A DNA stretch of 64,000 bases. It comes from Candidatus Bathyarchaeota archaeon. GTDB taxonomy: Archaea > Thermoproteota > Bathyarchaeia > Bathyarchaeales > Bathycorpusculaceae. This document shows positions 2,392-23,808 of this stretch, in pieces. Each line of letters begins with the position of its first letter. Position 1 is the first letter of the stretch. The stretch lies in NCBI GenBank assembly GCA_963702095.1, contig OY969706.1, positions 1,088,001 through 1,152,000 on the forward strand. Direction: 5' to 3'. Made by a program: the position numbers and the translations under genes. Below the pieces are notes generated by a model that was not told where the DNA came from, did not search any database, and saw only the letters and a list, made by a program, of their open reading frames with translations.

Positions 2392-2398
2392 TTCTTGG

Positions 2399-4259: not shown

Positions 4260-4497
4260 GTTTTCTGCCCCACAAACAACCCAATCACGGTGCCGCTTAA
4301 TCCTGTGATGGATGCGAAAATCTCAGCGTTCCAAGTGTGCAAAATGGCTAAGTGGGCTATCTCAAGAGCAGACATAAACGCCGTCATGCATATGGCGAAT
4401 TTTACGCCCAACACAAGCTTAGCAGTAGGTTCCTCAACGATGAGGCGGCTCTCTCAAAGCGTCTTCTAGTCAAGGCACGTTTAATGGGGTCTGCCAT
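4256..4497 (-). CDS. Small two-TM membrane protein (holin-like); one frameshift near 4450; absent from the ORF track
   Basis: Manual translation MADPIKRALTRRRFER/RLIVEEPTAKLVLGVKFAICMTAFMSALEIAHLAILHTWNAEIFASITGLSGTVIGLFVGQKT; ATGA overlap with the next gene. Confidence 0.5.
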
Positions 4498-4903
4498 CGA
4501 CACTCAACCTCTGCTGAAACATTGTCATCCGAAAAGTTCTTGGGCGGTTCATCGTTCGGTGCCCGCCCATCATAAAACTGTTAATGAGCTTGCTAGCCGA
4601 TTCGCTGGGAATATGCTCTTTTACCAAAACTTGGACGCCTAAAGCCCAACCGATAGGTATTGCGGTGTAGTCCAGATCGAAGAGACCGTCGGCATAGCGA
4701 AAACTGTTCTGTGCAATTACAATATGTTTTATTTTACCTATCAGCCCAACGTATATGCCCCAGCTTTTCACCGGTACATCTATAGTTAAGCCTGAACCGG
4801 AGCTTTTGCCAACCGAGGCATCACACCAATCTACAGCGATTAAATCGCCCGGCTTAACGTTCTCTATGAGCTTTAGCACTTGCTTACTCAACAGGACACC
4901 CAT
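4481..4903 (-). CDS. Hypothetical viral protein (beta-rich, VDWCDAS motif)
   Basis: 140-aa ORF heading the packaging operon and overlapping the next gene. Confidence 0.6.
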   Translation of the reverse strand: MGVLLSKQVLKLIENVKPGDLIAVDWCDASVGKSSGSGLTIDVPVKSWGIYVGLIGKIKHIVIAQNSFRYADGLFDLDYTAIPIGWALGVQVLVKEHIPSESASKLINSFMMGGHRTMNRPRTFRMTMFQQRLSVDGRPH

Positions 4904-5052
4904 AACCTACGGGGGAAAACATTGTAAAAAGCAATCTTGCGAAAAAACAACCTCTAAAAAATAAGGGATAAGAAAAACCAGTTAATGATTAGCTCTCAGC
5001 GTAGAATAAAAATGTTAATTTTAAATAGGTAAAGCGCAGATACAAAAATCCG

Positions 5053-6129
5053 GTGGGTGAGTTGGAGGAAAAACAAAAAAAATTTAATTATATCTGGATT
5101 GTTCGATGCGCTGGAAATGATGCAAATAGAAACGTTACCTGTAACATGTTAGAGAAAGCACCTTCAACTAGACTCATTAAGCCATTGGTGGAAGTAATTG
5201 ACCCGAAGATACTTCACAGGTTATCTAGACTCTTACGGGCTAAATATGGGTCTATAATGGTCGAATTACCCGCTTACTTTCTTGAAGTACGAAATAAGTA
5301 TTCAAGTTCTATTGAAAATCTAATCGCCCAATACCCCGACCAAGCGACCTTTTATGTTAAACACAAATCACTATTGGATACTCCCGTAATTTCGGCTCAA
5401 CATATTGGAAACCGTGATTACGATGAGGAGACTGAAACTCTTAAAAAAGTCAAAGATGACTTTAAGTCAGTAGCTGTACGAGTAAGAGTTCCCTATTTTG
5501 AACTAGCTACTGCAACGAGAATTCTTAACTCATATAAATCGTTAGTCAGCAAGATGGAAGAAAACGATAGCCTATTGATGGATGTTTTTAATTTATCGGG
5601 TTATGAAACTCAAATAAACTCAAACGTTGAGTTGATGTCTAAAATTGCTGCTGAAAGAACCGCCAAAACATTTGTTCTAAATGCCTTTGAACCAATTGAT
5701 AACGGTCATAATTTTGGGCCACTACTTAGCTTTAGAAATAATCTTAGTGGATTTGGCGATTTTGCGACAGAAAGGCGATTCCCACCAGAAGGAGGACGAC
5801 AACCGGAAAAGAAAGTTGGAAAATACTACTTTTGGGATCGGTTTTATCTAAAAGACTTCAAGAGAGTGGACTATGATATTGTTGCTGCATCGTTGAAGGC
5901 TACAGCGTTTTGGAGCAATCACGATAAACACGTTTCAAGCTGTAATGCATGTTATGCCCTGCAACATAATGACTACAACAGAAGCCCAACTTATTGGAAG
6001 GCTTTTAGAATGATTCATTACTTGCATTCAATTACTAATGAGACAGCCAAACATTTTAGCTCTGTTACATCGGACCAAGACCTTGACCCAGACGGTTTCG
6101 ATATTTTATTTAACGTCGAAGAGATTTAA
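5053..6129 (+). CDS. Beta-protein / sce7725-like protein
   Basis: GFGDFA..EGG and WKAFRMIHYL motifs; paired with an sce7726-like gene; AT-rich and opposite strand to the viral core. Confidence 0.6.
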   Translation: MGELEEKQKKFNYIWIVRCAGNDANRNVTCNMLEKAPSTRLIKPLVEVIDPKILHRLSRLLRAKYGSIMVELPAYFLEVRNKYSSSIENLIAQYPDQATFYVKHKSLLDTPVISAQHIGNRDYDEETETLKKVKDDFKSVAVRVRVPYFELATATRILNSYKSLVSKMEENDSLLMDVFNLSGYETQINSNVELMSKIAAERTAKTFVLNAFEPIDNGHNFGPLLSFRNNLSGFGDFATERRFPPEGGRQPEKKVGKYYFWDRFYLKDFKRVDYDIVAASLKATAFWSNHDKHVSSCNACYALQHNDYNRSPTYWKAFRMIHYLHSITNETAKHFSSVTSDQDLDPDGFDILFNVEEI

Positions 6130-6937
6130 TGTGTTGAATGTCATGCGAACAAAACAAGATTACCTGTCCGAAATACCATTTGAGTTCTTGATCGGTTTTT
6201 CTAAAGAAACGGGTCTAATTCGCGATAATGCTTGTTTTACAAAAAAGGATTTTATTCATCGATTGATACCTAACCTAACTCTTTCCGATTGCCAACAACT
6301 CAATGAGGAGTCAAAAGAAGGGCATTGTTACAAGTCAAGTGTTAGCCGGTATCTAAATGAATTCCCGACAGGTAATATTGTCAGTAAGAATTTTGTTGAA
6401 CATTTAGGCAAATTTGAAAGTCAACTTGGTTCAATTTTTTATGAATTTCCCATTACACATACCAGGGTTGATATTCTCAGACTTTCAGGAGAATTTTACG
6501 CGTATGAAGTCAAGTCTGTACGCGATAAGCTTGACCGATTAGTTTACCAAATTCCTGCCCTCCAAAAATACTTTGATTATGTAACTGTTGTTATTCCAAC
6601 CGAAAACGAAAAAAGCGTTAGGTGCTATCTTCAAAAAAACATTGGAATAACCAGTTTTCAAGTAAAAGACCGATTAATGGTCTTTGATTCCAAAAGGAAA
6701 GCAAAAAAAAGCGTGCTGTTGGATTCTATTGCCCAACTAGAAATATTGCGCTTGGACGAACTTAGGGATATTTACCGCTGTGGTAAGCTTAAACCAACAA
6801 GGAAGGAAGCCATTGAAGGAATAATGAGAAACCTGAACACAAAGGAGATTCACACTGTTTTTCTGTCAAAGCTTAAGGATAGAGAAAGAAAAACGCAGAC
6901 GAACCATTCAAATCAAAAAAGACTGGGTCATTTTTAG
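6038..6937 (+). CDS. sce7726-like PD-(D/E)XK nuclease (true start probably 6131 or 6143)
   Basis: E..RVD..YEVKSVRDKLDRLVYQ..Y.KYFDYVTVV motif. Confidence 0.75.
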   Translation: MRQPNILALLHRTKTLTQTVSIFYLTSKRFNVLNVMRTKQDYLSEIPFEFLIGFSKETGLIRDNACFTKKDFIHRLIPNLTLSDCQQLNEESKEGHCYKSSVSRYLNEFPTGNIVSKNFVEHLGKFESQLGSIFYEFPITHTRVDILRLSGEFYAYEVKSVRDKLDRLVYQIPALQKYFDYVTVVIPTENEKSVRCYLQKNIGITSFQVKDRLMVFDSKRKAKKSVLLDSIAQLEILRLDELRDIYRCGKLKPTRKEAIEGIMRNLNTKEIHTVFLSKLKDRERKTQTNHSNQKRLGHF

Positions 6938-7231
6938 TAACACTTCTTATCAAATTATCTCTTGGGTTATACCACATTAATTCGAAAATCACCTACTCTT
7001 CCAACACGTGGAAAACCATAATTGGTTGCTGCCACTAAACTGTTCTACGGTTCTGCGTTTTCTGGGCTAAGTAAAATACGTTCAATCGGTATCTCCTGCA
7101 AATTAATGGTAGCCATACTGTCCAGCAACCTTATCGTGTAGTTGCGGGAAATTAATACAATACTTGCTAAAAGAAAAAACAACTTTAAAGCACTAACAAA
7201 TAGTCATTAAAAACGCTGCGACAGTTTCTTT

Positions 7232-9441
7232 TTATTTTGTTACTTTTAATCTGTTAATTCTATTGACTTTCGATTTTAGTGCGTACACGTAATCCGCTAA
7301 CAAAACGGCTTCCCTGCCAAGCTCCAACATTATCTCCAATTCTTGAGTTTGACCGTCAACAAGATATTCAGCGCTGATAACTCGGAAGTCTGCGTCTACG
7401 TTCTCGTTTGGCAACTCAACATGTACTTTGTCGCCTGCAAGGATTAAAGTCGTGCCGTAGTCGATAACTGAACTTTTAACAGTTAGGTGCTCAGCTGGGT
7501 CCTTCATATAGTCAAGGATTGCTTGGGCTCTTAGGTTACATTCGTTGTCGCTGTATAATTCGTCGTCTGTGTCAACGTATTCTCGGAGTCCGTAGAGCGC
7601 TTGACTAGGATAATCTTCAACAACCGCACAGTAACGCATACCGCCGAAGTATAGACCATCTATCCAGTAATCGCCGTTTCCAGGGCTTAAATCCTGATGA
7701 ATATTTATTGAAACTTGAACCCTTACAATTTTGTTCCAATGGAACCCTGATTGACCATAACCGGGAAGCCATTCATCCGCATACTTGGAGCCGACTTTAA
7801 GCGAGACCTGGTTCCATTGAGCGTCATGCGCGACACCGGGTTTAGCAACCATTTGCTTTCCAGTATCGTCGATTAAGCTAATTGCCACCCCTGAACCTTC
7901 AAACGTGCTTGGAATATAGAGGCATAAATTAAGCGTGGGAAATAACTCGCAATTTGGTTCCATCCCTGCTTTGAAGGTGAATTTTGCCATTCCATACCAA
8001 TCGTTCACAAGGTGAACTTTGACGCTGCTTGTTCCGAAGGCTTTGTTTGTACTATCCTGTGCGACGTTTCCTGAGCCGCCCGAGCCTCCAGCGAAAGTCC
8101 AATCACCGTAGGGTGGATGCAGTATCTCTGTGAAGCCGTCTTTATCGAGAGGATAGCTTTTGTCCGACGCGCCCCAAATGGTGATTTTGTTTCGCACTGC
8201 AGAGATGTCTTTGCTGTAGGTGCTTTCCTCGATGCTGTCGGTTAAGTCGGCAACTACGCTTCGGCTGTTTTTGCGGAAAAACTCAAATCGCCCATCTGGA
8301 GCAACACGGAAATCAAAACCGATTACCCCGTTGTAGTCCGCTGACTGTGCAATATACTGCAGTATGTCCCAAACTGGCGTATCGTTGTAATCAAGCTCTG
8401 TATAGGTTGTGCTTGTATTCTCGACGAGTTCATAGCCATTGCGTGTATGGCTGATTCCCACGTAATTGTCCAGTAGGTCCTTGACTATGGTTTCGCCTTT
8501 GCAGTTGAGGTATTTTTTGGTGACTGTTCGGCGAAATAGCCGCTCTCCCCAGCATCTACCGCTTATGAGGGCATAGGTTTCTGTGCCTGTGGCTTGGTAC
8601 TCTATGTGCTCAACTTTGAGCGAAATCATGGGTAGCACGTTTGGGTTATAGGGGATGCGGCAAATTCCGATTCCTCCAGTTGCTCCCAGTTGGATGGGTA
8701 ACCAGCCGCTTTGGCTGTATTTTTTGCCCCAATTCTGGAGTTTAACTTCAAAGCTGCTTACCTCTTTTGTGGCGCCCAAATGAACCGTACATTCGATTAT
8801 GTCGGTCTCTGGAACGAAGATATTGCCAAAAACAACTACTGGTTTTGGAACGTTGATTACTTGCTCGGTGCTAGTTGGGGGCAACCCGACGTAGTGGAAA
8901 TTGGCCGTAATGGATGCATCATTGCCAGGATACCAAACGTATGGATTGTCATTGTTTCCGTCGCCCCAATCATCAAAGGTGTAGCCTGATTGTGGAAAAG
9001 CCTCTAGGCTGATTTGGTCTTCGGGATTAAAATGGAGTGTTGCTGGAAAGCTGGCAAAGACTACCGAGGTTTGCTGCCCAACGTTTATGGCTATTATGTG
9101 GTTGCATTCTTGGCTTAAGGCGGTGATTGTTAGGGTTTTGGTGCCTGTCCCGCCTTCTTGGCCTTGCCCTTCGTATAGGTTAAGTACAAGGATTATTGGT
9201 TGGGGTGTGTCCCAAGCTGCAAGTTGAGAAGCGGTGTTAGTGGCTGTCCAGTAGCCGGCAAAGATTTCATACCATTGGCTGCCAAGGAAAGGCGTCGGAA
9301 ACGCCAAATCTCCTGTAACGTAATCGCCGTTTCCATCGGTCAGCTGCCTTCTTCGACGGCAACGTAATCAACGACGGCAACGTTAGCGCCCACAATTGGA
9401 TTCCCATGTTGGTCCTGAACATGCACAGTAAAAGACGTCAA
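7232..9441 (-). CDS. Tail-tip/hub protein with N-terminal carboxypeptidase-regulatory-like and InlB B-repeat-like domains and an internal CBM-like insert; frameshift near 9345
   Basis: Follows the TMP. Upstream TTG at 9441 overlaps the TMP stop and encodes VHVQDQHGNPIVGANV..TDGNG. PQSGYTFDDWGDG..ITANF repeat; hub-like VRNKITIWG and SQALYGLREY. Confidence 0.7.
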
Positions 9442-10118
9442 GGCGACTCAAGACCTCTGCGAAGCGATGCGTTGCCTCCAATGTTGCTGCTCATGGAGCT
9501 TACGGATTCTTCGCCGGCTCTGGTTATGCTTCTAACGTGCTGGGGCGTTGAAATATTGGCGGCGTTAAAGGTCTTAACGCTACTCGTCGCCGAATCCATG
9601 CTTTTAGAAAAAGCAAACATCGCAACTGCAGCGGCAGCAATGACAGCGATCCCAACTCCGGTTAATGCGAAAAAGGTTGCATAACTAATGTTTAGTGCAT
9701 TTTGAGCAGCGGTTGAAATCCAAGCGGCAGCGCTATAGACCGCGTGAGCTGTAGCAGAAATTCCCAAGCGAACAGCTTGAAGCGTCTGTGATATGATGCC
9801 TGTCTGAGTAGCTGTGTTTTGAGCCACTTGAGCCGTCATGGCGCCAGTAGTTGAAACCGCCAAAGTGCTTTGAACACCAGCGCCTGCAGCAACGGCGGCG
9901 TTTTGGGCTGTCTGGGTTGCAGTGGCAGTCATCAGAATAGCATGCAACGAAGTCATGACGCGAATAACAGAGAAGATTTGCATGACACTTCTGCCAGTCT
10001 GTGAGTCTAGGGCGCCAAAAGAGACCCCTAAATTGATTACATCAGAGGAGATGGAGCGGAAAACGGATGAGGCTCGGTTCTCAGCACGAACGGCTATGCT
10101 GATGTCGCGCATGCTCAT
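9438..10118 (-). CDS. Very short tape measure protein (226 aa)
   Basis: Position after the chaperone and gp10-like genes; N-terminal ISIAVRAENRAS, Ala/Thr-rich helices, hydrophobic TGVGIAVIAAAAVA segment. Confidence 0.7.
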   Translation of the reverse strand: MSMRDISIAVRAENRASSVFRSISSDVINLGVSFGALDSQTGRSVMQIFSVIRVMTSLHAILMTATATQTAQNAAVAAGAGVQSTLAVSTTGAMTAQVAQNTATQTGIISQTLQAVRLGISATAHAVYSAAAWISTAAQNALNISYATFFALTGVGIAVIAAAAVAMFAFSKSMDSATSSVKTFNAANISTPQHVRSITRAGEESVSSMSSNIGGNASLRRGLESP

Positions 10119-10450
10119 GTCAGGCCAGCCTCCACTTTGGCACTTTCAATTGCCTCGATGATTATTTGTTCGAGTTGGGGCAGGTATTCTTGTAATGCGG
10201 GAAAGAGGTAGGGTTTAGCTTGCATGTATCGGGTGCCAGCTTCCACAAAGTAAGCGTAGGTTGCTTCAGCGCCGATACTTACCAGCCAATCTTTGACTAC
10301 AGCGTAGATTGTGCTTCTTAGGTAGCCTGTTTTTACGGAGACAAGTTGTCTTGCTAATGCTTGCACATCGTTAGCCCAAGTGACTAAATAACGGTAGACG
10401 GCATTCTGCAGGGCAGGGTCAAGCCTAAGCATAGCATCCCCAAACTCCAC
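10115..10450 (-). CDS. HK97 gp10-like neck/tail-completion protein
   Basis: VKTGYLRSTI, YAYFVEAGTRYMQAKPYLFPA motifs. Confidence 0.85.
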   Translation of the reverse strand: MEFGDAMLRLDPALQNAVYRYLVTWANDVQALARQLVSVKTGYLRSTIYAVVKDWLVSIGAEATYAYFVEAGTRYMQAKPYLFPALQEYLPQLEQIIIEAIESAKVEAGLT

Positions 10451-10547
10451 TAACCCCTCGACATCGCAGTCAATTTCTACCGTTTTCTTGTTTCCCTCTC
10501 TACTTTGCGCTTTTCTTCTTCGACCATAGCGTCCATTTCGTTGAGTA

Positions 10548-11006
10548 CTACAAGGAAGGACTGGACGGTTCTTGCAGGCTGTTTTCTAAGTTGGGTGATG
10601 GTCCAGCCGAATTCTTTGCATAGCCTAAACTCGCTAAGAGCTGGGTTCGGTCTTCCTCGCTTAATTGCGCTAATAAAAAACGCAAATCCTCATGAGACAA
10701 CCCATTTAGTTTATTGACGATTTTGGAGAGCAATTCGCCAAGCTCGATCGGGACGCCTTCTTCGTCGCCAAGCAACTTTTGCAGAGTTATCGGTTTAGTT
10801 TCGGGTTGCCCATGGATGCTAGCGATTATGGTTTCCGCTTGGATGGCAAGAAAGTCACTGCTTACCACTTCGCCGGTGACGTTGTTGTATTTCGTGTGCT
10901 TCTGAATGATGCGGTTGCGTTTAGCCCAGGTTATCTCTTTTAGAACGTACTTGCCTGCGAATTCAGAGCCAAATCTGTTATCGAGGTCTAAAACTTCGCT
11001 GTTCAA
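10548..11006 (-). CDS. Tail assembly chaperone (G-like); a -1 frameshift product would extend to 10477
   Basis: Immediately after the tail tube gene; contains a slippery heptamer with an open -1 frame. Confidence 0.8.
   Translation of the reverse strand: MNSEVLDLDNRFGSEFAGKYVLKEITWAKRNRIIQKHTKYNNVTGEVVSSDFLAIQAETIIASIHGQPETKPITLQKLLGDEEGVPIELGELLSKIVNKLNGLSHEDLRFLLAQLSEEDRTQLLASLGYAKNSAGPSPNLENSLQEPSSPSL
10674..10680 (-). other. -1 programmed ribosomal frameshift site T TTT TTA
   Basis: X XXY YYZ heptamer in the correct phase (CGT TTT TTA). The -1 frame reads ISAIKRGRPNPALSEFRLCKEFGWTITQLRKQPARTVQSFLVVLNEMD..RKR to a stop at 10477. Confidence 0.75.
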
Positions 11007-11867
11007 TTAGGTCACCTCGCTATCAGTGAAAGATTCTGCAGTGAAGCCCAATTTCATGGCGATGATGTCTTCTGGTCGGCGAACAGAGCTTACGTTTGCC
11101 CATTGGCAGTTCTTGAACAGGAAATACTTGCCAGCGCTTAAATCGAACTTGAGGCTAAATGAGCCATCGGCTGCTGCATAGTATTGGTCTTTGTTTTCAA
11201 AAGTGCAGGTTAATTCACCCGATAGGTCTCTGTGTCTTGGCACGATATACTTGGGCTTTGTTGGGTTGCTAGCTCGAATCACGCCGACACGTTTCAGGTT
11301 GTTTGCTATGGTGAATTTCCAGTCAGTTGTAACTTCAAAAGGCGACAAATTGGAACCATCAGCATTACCTTTCAGAACTGCGATGTCCTCCCAAGAGACG
11401 GCGCCGCTAAGCAAATCGTAGGTTGCACCGGCAGGTTTAGCCGAAGCGCCCGTCACATCCTGGGACATTAGATCGCATTCTGCGCGAAGCACGTCTTCCA
11501 TTGAGCATGAGATTGTTGCTTTATCAATTCTTGAACCGGTATATAGTAAATCAACAAGCTCATCTTGGCCTTCATCTAGAACCGATACTGTGAGCGCGAA
11601 GCAATCGACGACATGGTGCACAAAATTCATGATGTCATCTGAGGGAAGCGGATAAGCTACTTTGAGGTCGGCTTTGAGCAATCCTCGTTTGAGGGCAACT
11701 AAATCGCGGGTGCCGCATCCTCTTATTTTGACAAGTGATGGGTCGATGGCTGGTTCTATGTCGTCTGCGGTTAAGGTTTTGAAAATTGGGTTCGGGGGTA
11801 GTGGAGCGCCTAAGTAGTCCTCTAAGATGTAGTTGAATTTAGAGGTGGCGCCTGCGTAGACGGGCAT
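11007..11867 (-). CDS. Major tail (tube) protein
   Basis: Beta-rich 286 aa; WKFTIANNL and RDLSGELTCTFE motifs; position before the chaperone. Confidence 0.8.
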   Translation of the reverse strand: MPVYAGATSKFNYILEDYLGAPLPPNPIFKTLTADDIEPAIDPSLVKIRGCGTRDLVALKRGLLKADLKVAYPLPSDDIMNFVHHVVDCFALTVSVLDEGQDELVDLLYTGSRIDKATISCSMEDVLRAECDLMSQDVTGASAKPAGATYDLLSGAVSWEDIAVLKGNADGSNLSPFEVTTDWKFTIANNLKRVGVIRASNPTKPKYIVPRHRDLSGELTCTFENKDQYYAAADGSFSLKFDLSAGKYFLFKNCQWANVSSVRRPEDIIAMKLGFTAESFTDSEVT

Positions 11868-11914
11868 TTAGTTGCCGCCTCCCATTTGGGCGTTAGTTTT
11901 ATTCATTGTATCCC

Positions 11915-13270
11915 TCATTTTGCAACCCACAATTTCTTAGGAAAATAACTGCACTTGACTTGGACAGTGACTCTTGCAAAAGTCGAATCATCGGTTTTAT
12001 TGGATGTCTGAGTTACAGCTACATCAATCAAGCCAGGTATGACTCTGCGGTGCTGAATTCCCGTGCCCGGGTCCCAAAGCGGGCCTAACCTGCTGTACAG
12101 GTGCATAATCCGTTCAACTTCAACTCGCATGCGTTCTCGAATAAAGCAGGCTTTGTCAAGGGTAGTACCAAGGACCTTAACTAAAACTTCAACGGCGACT
12201 ACTTCAGCTCTTAACCAACGGTTGCCGCCTTCACTTAGGCTGTAGCAGCTGATTGCATATTTTTGGGGCATGTTTTTGAAGTCATGCTTTGATGGTTGAA
12301 TATCCCAATCAGCAACGGTTGAGGCTCGACCGTCTAGCCAAGCAATTTCGGTTTTAGCGGGCCCGCCTATCCATTCTGCTTTCAGCGTCTCCAATAGGAC
12401 TGTGCTGTTTGGTTCAACTGCAACTTGAGAATTCAAGAACCGATGGATAATGCGAAGGCTGTCTCGGGGTTTTCCAGTGGTGTGCTCAAAGAACCACCAG
12501 TAGGCCTCAAACTGGAGAAGCTCAGCGCCACTGTACCAGACTGTTGGCATGGTGACGGCTTCTTGCATATGGCACACCATGTAGGAGATTGGCATGTTGT
12601 CTGGGTTCCAGATGTTGGCTTCTGGATGCGCCGATAAGCCTCGATGGCGAGTTTCCCAATACCAGCTCTCAATTGTGGCGCCCCAATGCTCCGGATAGGG
12701 TGAAGAGGCCCTTAGCTTGTCAACCAGATACTTGAAAGCTGCAGCGGGTTCCATGTCACCTGAATTAGTCTTAAACCCCACCGTGACAATGTCTTCGTAT
12801 CCAGCGATAACTTGCAAAACTTTGTCGAAGGCTGCAATCTTCCATTCGCAAAAATAAACCTTAATACCGTTAGATTTGCAGAACTGCAGTAACCCAATTA
12901 CATAGTCGTCTGGGAAGGGTAGATGCAGCCACTCTTCATAGTAGCTTACGAGTTCTGCAATACGAATCCAGGGTATCTGGACGCCCGCCGCAATCAAATC
13001 CTGTAACCGCTCGGGGGTCACATACTGAGCTGTATCCCAGCCGCCAGCGCAGTCAATCATCACGGGGATGCCTTGAAAATTAGCAGTTATCCAAGCGGCC
13101 TCATCAGCCCAAACAGCATGTGCATTATACTCAGGGAGCAACACAACATCTGAAACCTTTCCCTCGTTAACTGCGAGCATCTGCTCGTAAACGGCGTGGA
13201 CATTTGGCATGTGCACCGTAAACTCCGGCGACGTCTTTTCGCTAACATGATAAACGATGGTTTTGAGCAC
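11915..13270 (-). CDS. Fusion of an ~280-aa probable (beta/alpha)8 hydrolase-like domain to a tail-terminator/completion-like domain
   Basis: Lies between adaptor and tail tube. N-terminal part aligns with 13730..14686; C-terminal part has VAVEVLVK..ERMRVEVERIM..ARVTVQVKCSY. Confidence 0.65.
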   Translation of the reverse strand: MLKTIVYHVSEKTSPEFTVHMPNVHAVYEQMLAVNEGKVSDVVLLPEYNAHAVWADEAAWITANFQGIPVMIDCAGGWDTAQYVTPERLQDLIAAGVQIPWIRIAELVSYYEEWLHLPFPDDYVIGLLQFCKSNGIKVYFCEWKIAAFDKVLQVIAGYEDIVTVGFKTNSGDMEPAAAFKYLVDKLRASSPYPEHWGATIESWYWETRHRGLSAHPEANIWNPDNMPISYMVCHMQEAVTMPTVWYSGAELLQFEAYWWFFEHTTGKPRDSLRIIHRFLNSQVAVEPNSTVLLETLKAEWIGGPAKTEIAWLDGRASTVADWDIQPSKHDFKNMPQKYAISCYSLSEGGNRWLRAEVVAVEVLVKVLGTTLDKACFIRERMRVEVERIMHLYSRLGPLWDPGTGIQHRRVIPGLIDVAVTQTSNKTDDSTFARVTVQVKCSYFPKKLWVAK

Positions 13271-13596
13271 TATGCACTCCCCAGATAGGGCTCTGTTTCG
13301 GCATCGATGTATGCCTGCAAGAAAGCCACCGCATCATTCCAAAAGCCCTGAGCGCTAGCGGGGTCACGAATGCGACGATATGCCCAAGCCGCAAAATTGC
13401 ATGCAGAGAACTTGACCAGCTGAGGCACGAAAGCTGGCACCATCAAACCCTTGGCTTTTAGGAACCCGTCGATTAAGCCGCTACTAGCAACTATGCAACT
13501 GGCTATTTCCGTATCCTCGCTTGTCTCTGCTGCGTCAATGTGCAAGAAAGGCTTTACTTCCGAGACAACGCAATAGTCTGCCATCGAAATTACCAA
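13270..13596 (-). CDS. Head-tail adaptor (gp6/gp15-like)
   Basis: DYCVVSEVKPFL..ASSGLIDGFL..VPQLVK pattern; ~105 aa. Confidence 0.75.
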   Translation of the reverse strand: MVISMADYCVVSEVKPFLHIDAAETSEDTEIASCIVASSGLIDGFLKAKGLMVPAFVPQLVKFSACNFAAWAYRRIRDPASAQGFWNDAVAFLQAYIDAETEPYLGSA

Positions 13597-13729
13597 GTAG
13601 CCAATCAGAAAAATTAGAAAAAAAGGCTTCTTATCAAAAAAAACCTATCAAAAAATCTACACTAAAAAATACCCTGAAACTCCTAAGTTTTAAAAGCCAA
13701 CAACCGTTAGATATCGATAAACGGGTTGA

Positions 13730-14686
13730 ATGATAATGAACAGGGCAACAATATTAATCGCTGTATTAGTATGCATCATTCTAACCGTCAGTTTTGCAGG
13801 AATCATCGCTACTTATAGCATCGCTGACGAAAACAAAAGCCTCAAAGAACAATTGGCAGCACCGTCAAAAAGCAGCAGTTAACGTTAGTTTTCCATGTAT
13901 CCGAAAAAGGCGATGAATACACATATGCCCGGCTCCCAAACGCCAGCTATACTTACGACCAAATACTCGCACTAAACAACAACACGTACCAAATCCTCTT
14001 ACTTCCAGAATACAAAGGAAACCTCAACTGGACAGAAGAACTCGCCTGGATAGAAGCAAACTTTGGAGGACCACAAGGCATCCCAATAATGCTAGATGTC
14101 TTTGGTGGAGGAAGTCAGAGTACACCCACACCAATGCTGACAACAGACCAAATCTCACAGGCTATGGACATAGCAAACGTCAAGTGCATTCGTATTGCAG
14201 AGGTAATAAGCTGGCACCTAGAAAACAACCTATCCTTCCCAACTAATTACGTTAATGAGCTCTTAGAATTCTGCAAAACACACAACCTCCAAGTATTTTG
14301 GACTGAGTGGAAAAACGACTTCCCAGATAAAAATGTAGAAACCTTTACAGCGATTAAATCATACATAGCAGGCTACGAAGACCTTGTAACCGTTTCCTTT
14401 TCTACCAATTCACAAGAACTTGAACCTGCGGACGCATTTCTAAAACTTGATCAAATGTTTACTCAATGGGGCACATCAATTCAACCTTGGTACTGGAATA
14501 CCACCCAAAACCAAGACCTAATGGACATGCCTGCCTCACTAATACCTAGAACACACTTTTGCAGCTCAAGGATTAGGCGCAAAAATAATACAGTATGAAC
14601 CTTACTGGTATCTCTTTGATAATGGAGTACCAAACGAAAACTTGAAGCTAATCTTAACAAATTTAGTCAACGAAAACAGCCACTAA
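13730..14686 (+). pseudogene. Secreted or membrane-anchored paralog of the N-terminal domain of 11915..13270; two frameshifts (A5 run 13867-13871 and ~14545), possibly assembly errors
   Basis: Signal/TM MNRATILIAVLVCIILTVSFAGII, then FHVSEK, LLPEY, IRIAE, IAGYEDLVTVSFSTNS, WGTSIQPWYW, QYEPYWYLF. Confidence 0.75.
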
Positions 14687-14731
14687 CTCTTTTAAAAAAA
14701 GGAAATTAAGGAAAGAACCGCCTTTTTCGGT

Positions 14732-15880
14732 CTAGTAGTGGCCGCCGCAGTTAATGCAGTCTATTTTCATTTGGCTTGTCGTGCCTGAATCGTATGCGAT
14801 GACGAGTATGAAGCTGTATGTGCCGCTTGGTGTACCGCAGCTGATCCATCTGTCGCCGCCATTGTAAACGAGTTGCTCGCTGCTGAGTCGCCAGTTGTAG
14901 TTGTCGCTTGAGACGTAGACGAGGAACCTGCTGAATGATTGCATTGAATCGCCATGTATCCAAACTTGCCCTGAAGCTGTGCCTCCGAGCCAATAGGATG
15001 CTCGTGCTGTTGCGCCACTTGATGCTGCGAGGAAGGTTGCGTAGCTGTAGTCAGGTGTTCTATACTGGCATTCGTATGGATTAGTAATGGATGCTGAGCC
15101 CCAAACGTCTGTGTATTGGCAGCTACATGCGAAGTGGATTTCGTCGTCAGGGATTAGGAATTTCCAGCTTTCCCAGCCCTCGTCGTAGTGTGATGTTCCA
15201 ACGCTAAATCCGTGTCTGTTGCTTGAATCGGGTATGTCATCAGTTGCACCGCGTTTCTCATAGTAAATTGGGTAGCCGGGTGTAACGTGGTCCCACTCTA
15301 TGCAGAATGAGATTCTGTAAGTGTGTCCGTTCCAAACATGTCCGTTTACTGAGTCAGTGAAGTCTTGCGTTGACCAGTAGTTTGGCCATTGGTCGTATCC
15401 ATAGGTTAAGCCAGACCATGTTAGGTCATATTGGAAGTAGAGTGTGTTGCCGTTCCATTGGTCGTAGTAGAATGTTTGGTCGTTAACCCAGACTGCTCCG
15501 CCTTGTCTGCTAATTGGAATCCACATCGTTGGGTATGGTCCTTCGGCTGGTATCGGTATCTCTAAGCCGTTTGCAACTACCACTCCGTCGATTTCGAGGA
15601 CTTTGAGAAGTCTTGCTTGTACCATTTCGCCGTCGTAGAAGTTACTATCCCATGCGGGTAGTTCTGCGGTTAAGTATGCAACGTCATATTTGTCCTCAGA
15701 TGGGTAGCCATAACATGACTGCTCATGGCTCCAATCATAGCACCGTGAGAATTGCGTGTCATCGATGGTAAGGCTGCCGATTATTGTCTCGCCCGTTGCT
15801 GCCGCTTTTGGAGTTAGTATGGCAAACATTGAGATTGCTAAGAGAGCAATTATCAAGATAGAGATTGGCTTTTTATTCAA
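14732..15880 (-). CDS. Secreted beta-rich protein with a C-terminal discoidin/CBM-like domain (viral cargo)
   Basis: Signal peptide NKKPISILIIALLAISMFAILTPKAAA; W/Y-rich; VYVSSDNYNW motif. Confidence 0.6.
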   Translation of the reverse strand: MNKKPISILIIALLAISMFAILTPKAAATGETIIGSLTIDDTQFSRCYDWSHEQSCYGYPSEDKYDVAYLTAELPAWDSNFYDGEMVQARLLKVLEIDGVVVANGLEIPIPAEGPYPTMWIPISRQGGAVWVNDQTFYYDQWNGNTLYFQYDLTWSGLTYGYDQWPNYWSTQDFTDSVNGHVWNGHTYRISFCIEWDHVTPGYPIYYEKRGATDDIPDSSNRHGFSVGTSHYDEGWESWKFLIPDDEIHFACSCQYTDVWGSASITNPYECQYRTPDYSYATFLAASSGATARASYWLGGTASGQVWIHGDSMQSFSRFLVYVSSDNYNWRLSSEQLVYNGGDRWISCGTPSGTYSFILVIAYDSGTTSQMKIDCINCGGHY

Positions 15881-16046
15881 TTTTTCACCTCCACCAACCC
15901 CTAAATTGGAAAATAACTGCTGAAATGCCTTCTTTTCAAAAAACAGGCAATAAAAAACACTAATTAAAATGAATTAACTAACCGATAACTAGTTAAAAAC
16001 AACGATAAAAAAAGGATAAAAAACAAAGGCTTACTGAATGCAAACA

Positions 16047-16253
16047 CTATCTTTCTAAAAACGCCTTTGCATCAGCAGCAATACGTCGGCATTCTTCCTC
16101 AGACACCTGATCGTCTTGAACAGCATTCACAACATCACTAAGCAAAGTTGTGACTTTGTCCTTGTTCACCTTAAAATCTATACCAACCAAACCAGCGATT
16201 ACTGAAAAGGCAGTTGTAGCAATCAAAGCTATAGTTCCATAATCCAAAATCAA
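16047..16253 (-). CDS. Small single-TM viral protein
   Basis: 68 aa with an N-terminal hydrophobic helix; overlaps the portal stop. Confidence 0.55.
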   Translation of the reverse strand: MILDYGTIALIATTAFSVIAGLVGIDFKVNKDKVTTLLSDVVNAVQDDQVSEEECRRIAADAKAFLER

Positions 16254-17509
16254 TCACCTCCCTTACTTTTGCCATCCAAACTTGTTGACGGTGATGACTG
16301 TGGATTAGCCTCCCAGAGCTCCCAACCTAGAATTTTAACAGCGTTTTTTCTAAATTCTTCAGGTCTAATCAGTTGCTTATCTGCTGCTGAAATTAGATCG
16401 GCAGCTGAGATTTCAGGGGTCTCAGGGTTGCCCCAGTTTAAGCGTACCTGTGCCTTTAGGGGGTCATAACCGCTCTGTTTTGTAATAACTGCAAAAATCT
16501 CCCGCTCGACTCTTCGTTTAATCATTCTTTGGATGGGGTCGATTAACATATCCTGTAGTTCAAGTGCAGCTTTGGCTGAGGCTTCGGTGAAACCAGGAGT
16601 ACTAAATAGGCGTGGGAGTGGCGTTTCACAGCCTAAATAAAACTGGTTAACAATATGGTCGATGTAGTACTCGAAGCGGGCTCTTGGGTCAATAGAAACT
16701 GGGTTAACGCTTACGTTTTTGGCGCCGCTAAAGAGCCATTGGCCTTCTTCGGGTCGGTTTCTAATAGCGTTTTCATATTTCTTGAAACTTTCATCCTTCA
16801 TACCCTCGGCTTGAACAACTACGTCAGGACCGGCATACTTGACAAAGATGCTGGGAAGGATTTTCTCGATTTTAGCTTTCATCCAAGCAAACGCAGGTCG
16901 CTTATCATTGTTGATTGCTAAGGTGTGAAGAAGAACCTGTAGTAAGCCTACACCGAAACCTGAATTAAAGTTTTGATTGATGTTCCAATGCAAAACGGCA
17001 TCAGGTCGCAATTCCCCATTGTTTACGCTTTCACAATAGGCGGCTCGAAGATGGTAGCTCTCAACTTTGTAGGGGATTTTAAAACCTTTAACGCTTGACA
17101 GTTTAATTTTGTCGATTGCGTCGATAGGCATTCGGACAAACTCTGCAAGCCTGTCCGGTGTAAGCCTTAGCCAAAACTCATTTCCACAAGCAATCAACCG
17201 AACAGCCATGTCATGCATTAAGCAATCTAAGTTGATTTCTTCGTTGAAAGAATCAACGGCGTTTTTGGCTTTCTCTTGACCCTGCGCACAAGTGGTGTAA
17301 AATCGTTTAACCGCGCTAGCAGCTAATAAGTCAACGCTGCTTTTGCAGGTTGGGTCTCGGTCATAGAGTCTCATGACGTCGGCAAGCGGAATATCTGAGG
17401 TCTCGTAGAATATTGTTCCAGTTGGATGGGCAACGCCTGAGGAGGGCGGAGCAAAACTGAGGAACTCTCGTAGTTTGTGGTAGATTTGGCTTATGGTTTT
17501 TTCCTCCAA
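16250..17509 (-). CDS. Portal protein
   Basis: 419 aa; LIACGNEFW, VLHW..GFGVGLL, IDPIQRMIKRRVERE pattern. Confidence 0.85.
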   Translation of the reverse strand: MEEKTISQIYHKLREFLSFAPPSSGVAHPTGTIFYETSDIPLADVMRLYDRDPTCKSSVDLLAASAVKRFYTTCAQGQEKAKNAVDSFNEEINLDCLMHDMAVRLIACGNEFWLRLTPDRLAEFVRMPIDAIDKIKLSSVKGFKIPYKVESYHLRAAYCESVNNGELRPDAVLHWNINQNFNSGFGVGLLQVLLHTLAINNDKRPAFAWMKAKIEKILPSIFVKYAGPDVVVQAEGMKDESFKKYENAIRNRPEEGQWLFSGAKNVSVNPVSIDPRARFEYYIDHIVNQFYLGCETPLPRLFSTPGFTEASAKAALELQDMLIDPIQRMIKRRVEREIFAVITKQSGYDPLKAQVRLNWGNPETPEISAADLISAADKQLIRPEEFRKNAVKILGWELWEANPQSSPSTSLDGKSKGGD

Positions 17510-17742
17510 GCCAAAAATAATCTGCCTTTTTCCGTTATTCGAAAAGGTGCAGTTTTCTCAGCGCTCTCTTTTTCTATGTCTCCGTCTATGACAAGAAAAG
17601 CAAACATGCCCGAAAAACAGGCGTAAGAAATGTCTTTGGTGCGAAAGAGCCTCTTCTCAAGTGCTGTGCGACGCATAGGGCCATAGCTAAGAGTTTTTAG
17701 GATAGCCTCAGCCACACCCAAACGGTCAATTAATTCACCCAT
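17491..17742 (-). CDS. Winged-helix DNA-binding protein
   Basis: ILKTLSYGPMRRTAL..FRITEKGRLFL. Confidence 0.7.
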   Translation of the reverse strand: MGELIDRLGVAEAILKTLSYGPMRRTALEKRLFRTKDISYACFSGMFAFLVIDGDIEKESAEKTAPFRITEKGRLFLAWRKKP

Positions 17743-17808
17743 TTTTACATCAGCCCAAACTTTCTTGAAAACAAAAAAGGAGGTTGTTAAGTGAGAGGCA
17801 GTTTTGCT

Positions 17809-18789
17809 CTAAGCTTCAGTCTGCTCTATAGTCTGCTTGATGTTTGTCATTCTGGCAATACCCTTAGAACGCAGGATACCTAAGCCAAATCTGGTTGTGG
17901 CACGAACCCCGTACTTGCCATTCTTAACGTCTATCCAGTCTTCGACTGTAACGTCTCGGCGTAGCAGCATAACAGCGGCAATTCTTGTGTCAATTGCGTA
18001 GGCAGTTCCGTTAGGTACAAGGGTTGTTGACTGAACTTTCATGTTCAGAACGTTTCCTATGCTGCCTTGGGCAATGTCGGTTTCGTCGCTGGGCAGATAT
18101 ACTGAGTTTATGAATTTGTCGTCGTTTAACAATTGGTGCTTCTGCATAGTGCTGCATGGTAGTACTGTTGGGTTCCAGTCCTCGCCTTCGACAGCGTTAT
18201 GAATGTTTAGCAATCCCGCCCAACTTAGTGGTGTATTGCCGCCGGCAACCTCTGCTCCGCCAGCGAGATCGGCATTAGCAACAGCAGCATACAATGCCAG
18301 AATTCTCTTTGTTTCATCTTTGGCAAGGGCTCTTCCAACTTTTTCTACCATGTTATTCATTACGTTCCAAGTGGCGTCTTCGGTGAATTCTTTAGTCCAT
18401 TCTTCAGAGGCTTCGGCTAGGATGTTTGTGTAGATGTCAACGGTACTGCTTTTTTTGCCGCTCAAGCGTGTGACTGCACCTTCAGCATATCGATATGCGA
18501 CAGCTTCTTCGTCAAGTGGAAAGCGCTCCATCTGCTCAGTAGTCGGCAGAACGGTTATGATGCTTCTGCCAATAAGGTTAGGCTGTGCTGCCTGCACTAG
18601 AGTGTCATGCATTCTTCCAAGGGCACCAACAGAATCGCTAAAGAGGCCTTCTTTGACTCCCAAATCGGTATAGCGTTTTAGAAATGGGTGGGTGCACATC
18701 TTCGGTTTCAAAGTTTCATAGAACTGCCTAGTTGAGCCGTCTGTAATGGCTTTGTCTTGCATTACTGCTTCGAAAAGTCTTGGTTTCAT
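17809..18789 (-). CDS. Major capsid protein (HK97 fold)
   Basis: 326 aa; YAEGA, IGNVLNMKV, VTVEDW..YGVRATTRFGLGIL motifs. Confidence 0.9.
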   Translation of the reverse strand: MKPRLFEAVMQDKAITDGSTRQFYETLKPKMCTHPFLKRYTDLGVKEGLFSDSVGALGRMHDTLVQAAQPNLIGRSIITVLPTTEQMERFPLDEEAVAYRYAEGAVTRLSGKKSSTVDIYTNILAEASEEWTKEFTEDATWNVMNNMVEKVGRALAKDETKRILALYAAVANADLAGGAEVAGGNTPLSWAGLLNIHNAVEGEDWNPTVLPCSTMQKHQLLNDDKFINSVYLPSDETDIAQGSIGNVLNMKVQSTTLVPNGTAYAIDTRIAAVMLLRRDVTVEDWIDVKNGKYGVRATTRFGLGILRSKGIARMTNIKQTIEQTEA

Positions 18790-19221
18790 TTAGGCGCCTG
18801 CCTCTATGAAGATTAAATCGCCGTCTGCCTCTGCCTTGTTTACGGTAGTTCCTAATTTGCGACTCATGTAGATAGTGTAAGTTGCTGCACCGCCTTCGTT
18901 TACTTCTTGATCGTTTAGTTCAGTTACTTTTCCGTTGCCGCCGTTACGGACTGCAACCCCTGCGGCAGTGGTTGCGCCATTAGCAACCACTTTGACCCTG
19001 CCTTTTCTTAGGATGGGAACCTGCTCGCTATCCGCAGCGGCTTTAACAGCAATGCCAAAGCCATACCAAGTGGTAGGAGTAGCCGTCACTTTGCCATCAT
19101 TTGTTAATTCGACAGGTGACCCCTTTGTAACTGCGCCATTGGCTTCATAACTCTCAATGACTGCATTTGGATCGTCAGTTTCTCCAGCAGACATCCAAGG
19201 CTTACCTGTTTTATCAGCCAT
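18790..19221 (-). CDS. Capsid decoration/cement protein (DUF2190-like)
   Basis: Gly/Ala-rich, ANGAVTKGSPV..FGIAVKAA; between protease and MCP. Confidence 0.7.
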   Translation of the reverse strand: MADKTGKPWMSAGETDDPNAVIESYEANGAVTKGSPVELTNDGKVTATPTTWYGFGIAVKAAADSEQVPILRKGRVKVVANGATTAAGVAVRNGGNGKVTELNDQEVNEGGAATYTIYMSRKLGTTVNKAEADGDLIFIEAGA

Positions 19222-19298
19222 CCAAAATAATCTCCAAAAGTTTTAACGTTCAGCCAAGGTCGTTCTTGGCCTACTAGCCCCACAAAAGTGAGCATAAA

Positions 19299-20216
19299 CT
19301 AAGGTACACTCCCCAAGCGTTCTTTCGCCCTAAAAATCTCCGAGCGAATTCCCTGACAGATACGTTGCATGCCCAAGCTTGACCGTTGTACCATCTGAGA
19401 AGGCAACAACCGCTCAAGGATAGCGATATGCTCAGAAAGAGGAATCATAACAGGAGGGTTCGTTAGCAATCCTCCACCGGGCAACTTCTTTCGCAGTTCC
19501 TCGATGGTTTTGTTAGCAGTAGACAGCTGGTTTTTTGCCTCATCGCAGGTATTCTCAGCGGTCTTGCATTTGCTCTCTGTGTCAGATAATTTTGTGTTAG
19601 CTTCAAAAATCTGTAACTTGAGGTTCTCAATTGTTTCCGTGTTCTGTCCGTTTACTTTTGCAGCGACCTTTTCAGCGATTAAATTCAAGTCTTTCTCTGC
19701 CAATTGTACAGGATTCTTACCCGTTGCAAGATGCTCTAGTACCTGAACGTTAGTTTCAGGCACACCTGGAACGGCAACAAGCGATAACTCAGGATTGAAC
19801 AAGCCGTGCGGAACTTTGGCGTCCACTACATCAAGCGTGTTGTAGTCAGCGCCGACACTAACGTGCTGAACGAGTCCATTTCTAATTTTATCAGCGGTGG
19901 CAGCGTCATAAATCTCAGCCTCATAATTTAGACATCGAGCAGCGGCATCGTAGTTGCACTTGGTTACTTTTCCAGCAGCCGAATCAACAGCCACATGCTC
20001 GATATAGACAGGGGCATCAACCAGCTTGTCAGCAAAAGCTCGGAGTTCTTCAGGCGTATAAACGTTAAAGTTCCTAGACATTCCAGCGGCCAATGCAACT
20101 CCGCCGATTCGTAATGGCTTCTCTGCTACTGCTTCAAGGACTTTGAAGGGAAGAACCGAAGATACATGCTCCCGAACATGCTTACACTCTTTACAGCCAG
20201 AGCCACACTGAGACAT
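19299..20216 (-). CDS. Prohead protease with a C-terminal scaffold-like coiled coil
   Basis: SRNFNVY..VYIEH, HVSVG, ELSLVAVPG, then a coiled coil. Confidence 0.85.
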   Translation of the reverse strand: MSQCGSGCKECKHVREHVSSVLPFKVLEAVAEKPLRIGGVALAAGMSRNFNVYTPEELRAFADKLVDAPVYIEHVAVDSAAGKVTKCNYDAAARCLNYEAEIYDAATADKIRNGLVQHVSVGADYNTLDVVDAKVPHGLFNPELSLVAVPGVPETNVQVLEHLATGKNPVQLAEKDLNLIAEKVAAKVNGQNTETIENLKLQIFEANTKLSDTESKCKTAENTCDEAKNQLSTANKTIEELRKKLPGGGLLTNPPVMIPLSEHIAILERLLPSQMVQRSSLGMQRICQGIRSEIFRAKERLGSVP

Positions 20217-20593
20217 ACCTAAATCGCCAAGAAAACAATTCTGCGGTTAAGCATTAATGGCTTGAGAGCCTAAACAGGATAATATCGCAAACAGGACATA
20301 CACGGCTACTTGGACATAGCACATCGTTTAGCTTTTTTAGCTCTGGGAAATCATTTCGCAACAGGATTAACTGTGAACAATTTGGTAAGTTCCTCCGCAG
20401 TTAGACTTCCTTCGATTAATTTTTGTAAAACCCTTCTCGTAATTCGCCTTGTAGAGCAGGTCATTATTGATCTCGCTGGCTTCTGTCAGGTATGAGGGAT
20501 TTTTCTTACAGTTAATGACAAGGAGAACCATTAAGGCAAAATCTAAATACACTAATTAAACAATCAAGAATACCAGTTCTGGGATAGAAAATT

Positions 20594-21734
20594 ATGAAGT
20601 CAAAAAAACAAGTGATTTACGGGATAATAGTAGCATTCATTGTTCCTACCTTACTGGTTTTTGTCTCATGGGCTATAGGAGCGGTTCATGATGTGATGTT
20701 TGTTATTGATGAAGTTATTGCCGCTACGGCAGCATCGTTGGTGTTTGCGGGACTTGTTATATGTGTTCATGGTGTGATAGGAAAAGAAGGAATTATAGAA
20801 GCAAGAGACATATTGAAACTCCCTAAAGCTAAACAAGCTAGTTGGATACAAAGACATAGAATTTTTGTTAAGAAAGATAAGAAGGCAGACTTTTGGTTAA
20901 TGATTTTTCTACTAGCGGTTTTCGGTTCTATCGCTATCCTGATTGCTACAACTTTTCCAGTAGTGCCCTCTTCAACAAACGCAGTTCTCATATCTAATGT
21001 TACTAAAGGAACCATGATTGCTTTTGGTGCAGGAATCCTGATCACTTGTATACTGCTTTCAGGGAATGAATTATACAACATATGGGATTCCAAACAAAAA
21101 ATCATTTACGAACAAAAAAAGGCTCTTTTAACCATAATTACTGACTTTGATAATTCATTTCGAGAATTAAAGCAAACTACTCAACAGAAAACGAAGGAAA
21201 GACTACTAGATGACTTTCAAAATAATCTTAGAAATCTATGTTACGATTACCCGTGGGATGAAAAAAAACGAGACAGAATAGTAGATGTATTAAACTACAT
21301 ACCGTCTAGACTCGCAAACGACCCTAACGTCGGGTCTTATCTGCTCTTTCTTGGATTTATAATTCATCGAGACAGCAAGTATACTATAAAACTAGTAAAA
21401 GAGAAGTTCTCAGTAGAATTGGAGAACTTGTATAATGACCAACGATTTGAAACTAACCCAAAACCTATACTTTTACTTCAAGAACTAAACGAGCATTCAG
21501 AAGTATATATGATGAAACTGATTGACGAGACAAGTTCAATTTCTAAATGGAGCGACCAGCGATTTCAAGCTTTAGGCAGTAACATTGAACTATGGGAACT
21601 AAAGACCAAAAACATAGAAGCCCATTCTAGAAGTTTCAGATTATATACTCAGAAAAATGGATGATGCAGCACGAAGTAATGATGATACAGTTTTCAAAAG
21701 ACTTGATTTCCTTAAAGCAGTAACAAAGAGGTAA
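20594..21734 (+). CDS. Four-TM membrane protein with a helical cytoplasmic domain (cargo); probable frameshift near 21622, ORF track ends at 21664
   Basis: Hydrophobic segments; the shifted frame continues ILEVSDYILRKMDD..KR to a stop at 21734. Confidence 0.55.
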
Positions 21735-21756
21735 AGAAGAATCAGAGGTTTTATCG

Positions 21757-22257
21757 TTGCAGAAACCGTTGCACATTGAACTCATAGCTACAGATGGTGC
21801 AGTACAAAAAAGGGTACTGTGGGCACATTCCGCACCTAACGGTGTATATTGTGGTATGTGTAGCAACGGTCAAGATTTTCATGTTACTTACCATGCGGAC
21901 GGGAATGTGTTTAATAATTTTGGCGGCAAAACAACAAAGACTTTTACAGGAAAATCCTTTAAAGAGTTTACAGGGTATCAACAACTATTATGTTCTGGCG
22001 TTACCAATAACTTGTCTCATGGGTTCTATCCTTCATATACGCTAAAGAAACTAGACGCTATTGTAAACATTGATGTACGAAATTACAAAAAAGGCGCTGG
22101 TTGCATGTTGTTTATGGTAGAGCCAACTTTTACTGCACTATCAGAATTAGTTAGGCATTTTCAAACTGGGAACCAACCACATATAACGGAAGTTCACTCA
22201 TTTATGGAATGTAATCCTTGGTTAGCTATTTTTGTATATGGCGATGTTTACGGTTAG
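21757..22257 (+). CDS. Hypothetical protein (HVTYHADG motif)
   Basis: 166-aa ORF in the AT-rich cargo block. Confidence 0.55.
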   Translation: MQKPLHIELIATDGAVQKRVLWAHSAPNGVYCGMCSNGQDFHVTYHADGNVFNNFGGKTTKTFTGKSFKEFTGYQQLLCSGVTNNLSHGFYPSYTLKKLDAIVNIDVRNYKKGAGCMLFMVEPTFTALSELVRHFQTGNQPHITEVHSFMECNPWLAIFVYGDVYG

Positions 22258-22391
22258 ATTTACAGGGTGTCCTTCTCCTCAAAGGCATCAAATTCTTTAA
22301 TTCTAATAAAAAACGACATCGTTCGAATCGGGTAAGACAACCACCAAGGCGCAGAGAAATGTTATATTCTTAGCACTTGCAATAGAACACT

Positions 22392-23805: not shown

Positions 23806-23808
23806 TTA

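Follow-up and report, generated by a model that had tools for sequence, protein, structure and literature searches.

Background

In the virus HFTV1, the hexameric tail completion protein gp29 is described as sitting between the dodecameric connector and the tail tube (PMC12494034). For RgGH98 of R. gnavus, a glycoside hydrolase of family GH98, a barrel followed by a C-terminal beta-sandwich is described, with Glu411 as the general acid (PMC8730463). Here we describe a gene in which a predicted tail terminator and a GH98-like barrel are joined in one polypeptide. The gene lies in a 64,000 bp stretch of the genome of a Candidatus Bathyarchaeota archaeon (positions 1,088,001 to 1,152,000 of contig OY969706.1, assembly GCA_963702095.1), which we call the window and to which all coordinates refer. 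It is part of the head-tail module of a provirus and encodes 451 amino acids (11915..13270, minus strand, stop codon at 11915-11917; taken from the open reading frame (ORF) list). A second, free copy of the barrel domain is found next to it on the plus strand (13730..14686). An initial annotation of the window, made by a model from the sequence alone, had proposed that the two copies share a TIM-barrel glycoside-hydrolase-like domain, used on the virion and on the surface of the lysogen. The reading that we consider rather probable is that of a terminator of a siphovirus-like provirus which carries a GH98-like barrel, perhaps as a glycan-cutting neck collar, with the free copy as optional cargo.

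How tailed archaeal viruses pass into and out of the cell envelope is largely unknown, and the same is true of the envelope of the Bathyarchaeia, a group abundant in sediments. In the literature searched, which included a survey of Bathyarchaeia viruses whose supplementary tables may list the gene (PMC10848311), we found no fusion of a terminator with a hydrolase described.

Results and discussion

The fusion is conserved

Comparison of the 451-aa ORF with the open middle frame of the plus-strand copy (13828..14595) by BLASTP gave 40% identity over 220 residues (E 2e-47), and the motifs listed in the initial annotation as common to both copies were present. A third copy of the domain was not found in the genome, which consists of one contig of 2,937,366 bases. 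The fused protein has 54 database relatives with 43-96% identity; those that are named come from metagenome-assembled genomes (MAGs) of Bathyarchaeia, as do, where named, the closest protein relatives of the window. Since the alignments of 42 of the 54 extend over at least 97% of the query, the fusion is genuine and not a misassembly, which was one of the ways in which the initial annotation could have failed.

The same arrangement was seen in 22 related loci, drawn from IMG/VR and GTDB genomes (with L003 = L016 and L006 = L017 as duplicates). In all of them barrel and terminator lie side by side in the same orientation, and the tube gene follows directly downstream. The fused gene sits between the genes for the head-tail adaptor and the tail tube in 22/22 loci, which is the position expected of a tail terminator. 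In the window, the adaptor directly upstream is Mu gp36-like (13270..13596, minus strand; Pfam PF07030, E 2.1e-5, passing the family cut-off) and the tail tube protein directly downstream matches PF18906 (11007..11867, minus strand; E 5e-10).

Altered forms of the gene were also encountered. P0053, a protein of 374 aa from a 3.3-Mb contig, matches 31% of the query at 76% identity, corresponding to the first half of a barrel of the fused type, and turns into unrelated sequence after the GYD motif; it is probably derived from a deleted or rearranged provirus in another genome. In a genome of the same genus, barrel and terminator matches lie side by side (G193:C6:384648-385759) with an in-frame TGA in the barrel part, and a second barrel match of this genome, on C2, contains a TAG. 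In view of these in-frame stops, broken copies of the barrel/terminator system recur.

The C-terminal domain resembles tail terminators

The C-terminal 169 residues (residues 283-451, 11918..12424, minus strand) were modelled alone from 18 locus translations, with a predicted local distance difference test score (pLDDT) of 82.4. In a wide structure search this model matched the HFTV1 tail chain 9fkb_Pa (Z 12.9, root mean square deviation (rmsd) 3.0, 135 residues aligned), T5 p142 (Z 12.3) and lambda gpU (Z 11.9), with 122-135 residues aligned across these matches. Of the first 35 rows, 32 were components of the neck, terminator, collar or cap in phages and tail-like systems, and the first row with another name was PilO, at Z 6.2. 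Foldseek agreed on the top matches (E 3e-5 to 1e-3), and the BFVD matches carry the names tail completion or tail terminator protein. A curated terminator family matching the 451-aa protein was found in neither Pfam nor PHROGs. The structural models support a terminator fold of the gpU / T5 p142 / HFTV1 tail type (tail completion, gpU class) for this domain. The initial annotation had suggested such a virion fold and had named its absence as a refutation; the Z scores of 12.9-11.9 speak for the fold. Judged by chain length and position, 9fkb_Pa is presumably gp29 of HFTV1.

Free-standing terminator relatives of 137-156 aa exist, such as P0233 (31% identity, E 1e-19). A profile of the unfused terminator matched 5 of 301 sampled Bathyarchaeia genomes, this genome counted, and three of these five matches were free-standing frames of 137-178 aa; tblastn detected no barrel in the 15-18 kb around each of the three. 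A search of IMG/VR with P0233 for unfused terminators found none. The unfused terminator, for which the initial annotation had wanted relatives checked, is thus present in more distant proviruses. In the whole genome studied here, the only match to the profile is the fused gene. The fusion protein itself must therefore act as the terminator, which would place six barrels on each virion, provided that the ring is hexameric.

At the border between barrel and terminator, residue 286 (12413..12415) is Glu in the window and Met in 15 of 30 fused homologs (alignment A1). This Met falls within about 2 residues of the point where free-standing terminators such as P0233 begin, and looks like a fossil start codon. 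It may also be an internal start which yields bare terminator subunits in that subgroup.

The N-terminal domain is a barrel closest to GH98

The AlphaFold2 (AF2) model of the fused protein, built from 30 sequences, reached a pLDDT of 89.1 and a predicted template modelling score of 0.88. In this model residues 1-282 (12425..13270, minus strand), which lack a signal peptide as first noted, form eight strands alternating with helices, a (beta/alpha)8 arrangement. The best Foldseek match of the barrel was to the catalytic modules of GH98 (E 8e-11), and VIA, run over the Foldseek list, gave GH98 a Z score of 21.2 (rmsd 3.2, 264 residues aligned, 13% identity). In a search independent of Foldseek, over 48,161 PDB representatives, GH98 structures scored Z 21.0, 20.1 and 17.7; the next row scored 15.7 and later rows were mostly other glycoside hydrolases. 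The GH98 matches align 262-264 residues and lie about 5 Z units above other families. These comparisons support the identification of the shared domain as a (beta/alpha)8 barrel of glycoside-hydrolase type with GH98 as its closest fold, in line with the initial proposal of a TIM barrel (GH98 Z 21.0-21.2).

Conservation was counted over 46 rows of an alignment, comprising 16 fused, 26 free and 4 distant outgroup members. E106, N169, W203, W205 and E255 are conserved in 16/16 fused, 25-26 of 26 free and 4/4 outgroup rows; E142 is found in all fused (16/16) and free (26/26) rows and is replaced in the outgroup by Asp (2 rows) or gaps (2 rows). In the AF2 model these six residues are located at or just past the C-terminal ends of strands 4, 5, 6, 7 and 8. 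That face of the barrel is the substrate-binding face of barrel enzymes. Invariant acidic residues are thus present at the strand ends, where the initial annotation had called for paired glutamates, and E106, E142 and E255 are candidate catalytic residues on the basis of the alignment.

The barrel could also be a non-catalytic decoration, that is, a collar which binds glycans or is purely structural, and which aids adsorption or stabilises the neck but cuts nothing. Binding modules are common on phage structural proteins, no glycoside hydrolase family recognises the barrel by sequence, and a likeness in fold alone shows no function. However, E106, E255 and the Trp-x-Trp motif are kept over fused, free and very distant members in the 46 rows, which binding or structural roles seldom demand, and we consider a purely decorative barrel rather unlikely.

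A profile search of 1.84 billion representatives with the barrel returned 154 proteins at E <=0.001, 73 of them at E <=1e-10. Most of the weaker matches beyond the close family (E ~1e-14 to 1e-4) measured 600-1800 aa. Of 25 long matches scanned, 9 had Pfam domains elsewhere than in the barrel region (e.g. F5/8 type C, SLH, laminin-G and BNR), one of the nine being a Cohnella protein; the other 16 had none. Distant multidomain relatives (P0238 and P0257) were tried as a sequence bridge to GH98 and rejected, as they gave only matches of carbohydrate-binding module type. In the ESM Atlas the nearest clusters of the barrel were unnamed bacterial proteins; the nearest named match, DUF4434 at 0.88, is a lead only.

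The free copy, as assembled, is interrupted by two frameshifts

The plus-strand copy at 13730..14686 does contain the domain, as had been annotated, but it is not a single reading frame. Translation in three frames showed that it starts in frame A at 13730, where a stop at 13880-13882 ends a segment of 50 aa, the hydrophobic N-terminus; frame C then covers 13828..14595, and frame A resumes at about 14546 and runs to a stop at 14684-14686. Alignment with the intact copies of L032 and L006 confirmed both suspected indels, a 2-nt insertion at 13858..13859 and an extra C at 14545..14546 (both plus strand), which cause the first and the second frameshift; one further difference of 3 nt is in frame. 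The N-terminus, with a short basic start followed by a hydrophobic stretch of about 22 residues, reads as a membrane anchor and not as a cleavable signal, so that the protein described earlier as secreted would instead be membrane-anchored. A TATA-like box of archaeal type, TTTTAAAA, was read from the sequence at 13688..13695 (plus strand), about 38 nt upstream of the first ATG, and is a candidate promoter element of the free copy.

It is conceivable that the two frameshifts are assembly errors and that the free copy is intact and functional in the real genome. The single 2.94-Mb contig may point to indel-prone long reads, and the sequence between the two shifts has no other interruption and shares 88% identity with the intact L032. 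Public sequencing runs contain only relatives of this stretch (the best contains 0.28 of its sampled words), and no RNA run is listed among them. Among them a near-identical contig of 229 bases from another sample (run X3) lacks the 2-nt insertion at 13858-13859, and loose ends in runs X2 and X4 also read the unshifted frame at this site; no near-identical contig in these runs bridged the second site, 14545/14546. Furthermore, the matches of several structural genes are split in two MAG loci on long contigs, L018 and L021.

On the other hand, neither insertion is situated within a long homopolymer, and the adjacent 6.3 kb of tail genes show only 2 gap openings against a 94.5% relative. The structural genes are all whole, and two errors within 700 bases, both in the one dispensable gene, would be odd. 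We therefore favour a real and recent inactivation, because of the few gap openings in the neighbouring genes and the sequence context of the insertions, and regard assembly errors as possible though somewhat doubtful. The free copy is probably inactive in this genome. Since the gene is broken by two frameshifts as assembled, the lysogen-surface role that had been proposed for it cannot be claimed here, and receptor removal or superinfection exclusion would be hypothetical.

The split tblastn matches in L018 and L021 concern the terminator domain, Neck1, tube, tape measure, tail protein and terminase, and fit either indel errors or decay in those assemblies.

The free copy is cargo in a variable slot

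A search with the free copy of the window listed 135 relatives. About 30 of them have a length near 310-320 aa and consist of a membrane anchor followed directly by the barrel, and many others, of 360-445 aa, have a coiled coil between anchor and barrel. The intact short relatives of the window's copy measure 311-316 aa and are at most 84% identical to it. The short free form P0055 matched no family in Pfam, PHROGs, NCBIfam or PADLOC, and the long form P0103 gave only chance matches to coiled coils. The barrel domain is rare, being present in 5 of the 301 sampled genomes of the class, this one counted.

Of the 16 related loci whose upstream flank extends over at least 3 kb, 5 carry a free copy beside the fused gene; it is the short form in L006/L017, L009 and L011 and the long form in L007. 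In L003, a relative with 96% identity, two ORFs on the opposite strand occupy the slot, one encoding a secreted protein of 497 aa and the other a membrane protein of 152 aa. In the window the slot also encodes a 382-aa secreted protein (14732..15880, minus strand; from the ORF list), which recurs beside the intact free copy in L006/L017 with 80% identity and has no match in Pfam, PHROGs, PADLOC or NCBIfam. The content of the slot thus differs among the window, L003 and L006, and a T-run follows the stop codon of the free copy. Like a prophage moron, the free copy is variable in a fixed slot, has its own orientation and is accompanied by promoter- and terminator-like signals, as far as these can be read from the sequence. 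We conclude that it is optional cargo in a variable slot, on the strand opposite to the late operon. Outside viruses, long forms were found alone among housekeeping genes in all four contexts examined (L025, L029, L030 and L035, the last being the chromosome of Ca. Bathyarchaeum tardum).

These contexts bear on a further explanation, in which the free copy is a lysis enzyme (an endolysin analogue anchored by its signal) and the fused copy a virion-borne entry enzyme, as in pairs of endolysin and virion-associated lysin. The N-terminal anchor would put a hydrolase-like domain outside the membrane, and the window, L006/L017, L007, L009 and L011 each have both copies in one provirus. An essential lysis gene should however be conserved, whereas the free copy is missing from most of the 16 flanked loci and gives way to other genes in the 96% relative; its direction is also opposite to that of the late operon, and in the 4/4 non-viral contexts the same form is found on its own. 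A lysis role of the free copy is unlikely because the gene is dispensable and also found outside viruses, and the lysin pair as a whole appears very improbable.

How the two copies are related

A tree of the barrel family was built from 46 rows and 262 columns. Its best version joins the fused barrels to two free rows, L026 and P0054, with a bootstrap of 74 and a Shimodaira-Hasegawa-like approximate likelihood ratio test of 99. The short proviral free copies form a clade of their own (99/97) beside the long forms, with weak support for the backbone, and the free copy of the window is placed with copies from cellular neighbourhoods. Constraining all viral rows into one group cost 26.4 log-likelihood units, with p 0.118 in the approximately unbiased (AU) test; a single viral clade is therefore not rejected. 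An earlier rejection at AU p 0.019 was disregarded, since that test omitted the two free rows nested in the fused clade. The fused and free copies are thus old paralogs, and separate capture of the two is the better-fitting, though unproven, history.

Proposed function of the barrel

We propose that the 451-aa protein would serve as tail terminator of a siphovirus-like provirus of this Bathyarchaeia archaeon. By analogy, its C-terminal 169 residues would assemble into a hexameric ring, capping the tail tube and joining it to the head-tail adaptor, so that each virion would display six barrels as a neck collar. The barrel belongs to a small and sporadic Bathyarchaeia family, the other members of which are membrane-anchored, often on a coiled-coil stalk. 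On the virion it would bind and cut a glycan of the host envelope or matrix, helping the short-tailed particle through the glycan layer or freeing it from this layer; in relatives, the free copy would put the same type of enzyme on the outer membrane face of the lysogen. It is an inference that the ring forms, that six barrels are exposed on it at the neck, that they cleave a glycan and that there is any role on the surface of the lysogen. Binding and cutting of such a glycan is the most likely role of the barrel, because the invariant glutamates and the Trp-x-Trp motif are kept at the C-terminal strand ends of the model, but we put its chances at about even.

Several points weigh against this proposal. 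The fused protein matched no family in Pfam, PHROGs, NCBIfam or PADLOC. PF08306 (Glyco_hydro_98M) was absent among the matches listed for 39 family members scanned at E <=10, the window proteins likewise being without a match, and PDB profile searches with alignments A1 and A2 gave nothing relevant. The comparison with GH98 is at the level of the fold, and the equivalence of catalytic residues is putative. The first 35 solved chains matched by the terminator domain all align from within their first 27 residues; none of these solved proteins therefore has an N-terminal domain, and a terminator ring with six N-terminal barrels would be without parallel among them. Entry enzymes are usually located at the tail tip, and the neck lies at a distance from it. 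Finally, the frameshifts of the free copy could be assembly errors. A PF08306 search of the whole genome gave no match either, which says little as control genomes gave none.

A more far-reaching version would be a two-site glycan system built from one host-derived fold. Six active endo-glycanases per neck ring would cut, or release the virion from, a Bathyarchaeia polysaccharide, and an anchored version on the lysogen would strip the same glycan and exclude superinfection; half of the fused genes also have, at the border of the two domains, a putative fossil start codon that may permit rings in which decorated and bare subunits are mixed. We consider this system as a whole distinctly unlikely. 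If it were true, the substrate of the barrel would be a first experimental handle on the cell envelope of Bathyarchaeia.

Independent of that version, a core tail protein contains a conserved enzyme-like domain taken from a host surface protein family. This points to one particular glycan, which would be a barrier or receptor, and the barrel is a short, expressible protein with which this glycan could be sought. The fusion also widens the known places at which enzyme domains are attached in tailed viruses.

Organisation of the provirus

According to the Pfam and PHROGs scans, the head-tail virus module spans 2399 to about 20216 of the window, for the most part on the minus strand. Besides the genes described above it includes the large terminase (2399..3847), a portal-sized ORF, the major capsid protein, cement/scaffold-like proteins, a Neck1 / HK97 gp10-like protein (10115..10450, minus strand; phrog_5, E 7.8e-14), a 691-aa tail protein and a short tape-measure-like protein. 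A tRNA-Lys gene is located at 26504..26581, after which host-type genes (CdvA, creatininase) follow. In the search for attachment sites, no direct repeat was found in 1..27000 of the window and no second copy of the 3' part of the tRNA-Lys was found near the provirus.

Adjoining the terminase, an ORF at 946..2391 (minus strand) encodes an ABC-type ATPase with a GNAT-like C-terminus (Pfam, PHROG 293 and weak PADLOC matches to mad3/mad8). A 299-aa ORF at 6038..6937 (plus strand) matched PADLOC 'cll' (E 2e-16) and phrog_984. Both ORFs are possible defence or counter-defence cargo. Just past the tRNA-Lys, the ORF at 27441..29081 (plus strand, 546 aa) combines a CdvA-like N-terminal domain with a long Pro-rich, extensin-like tail.

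Comparison with known systems

The terminators lambda gpU, T5 p142 and HFTV1 9fkb_Pa share with the Bathyarchaeia protein the fold and the place of the gene between adaptor and tube, and here too it is the sole such gene in the provirus. The difference is the 282-residue enzyme-like barrel added at the N-terminus.

This barrel most resembles GH98 enzymes (S. pneumoniae Sp4GH98/Sp3GH98, R. gnavus RgGH98 and the B. ovatus endoxylanase), which were the best of all PDB representatives for the (beta/alpha)8 barrel and which likewise have conserved glutamates at the strand ends. In contrast to this likeness, identity is only 9-13% and the barrel has no PF08306 match. The C-terminal beta-sandwich is also missing: in the fused form the barrel leads into the terminator domain, and in the free form a stop codon comes next.

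The free copy resembles prophage morons and the surface genes of lysogenic conversion in its orientation opposite to the late operon and in its slot between the head and tail modules. As with morons, the slot encodes membrane or secreted proteins and holds other cargo in the closest relative. Unlike them, the cargo is paralogous to a domain that forms part of the virion, and it is broken in this genome.

The collar appendages of phi29 and the neck passage structures of lactococcal phages are glycan-targeting appendages borne on the neck or collar. As in those systems, a carbohydrate-directed module would be found at the head-tail junction and not at the tail tip. The appendages are separate proteins on the collar, whereas here terminator and module form one polypeptide, in a virus of an archaeon.

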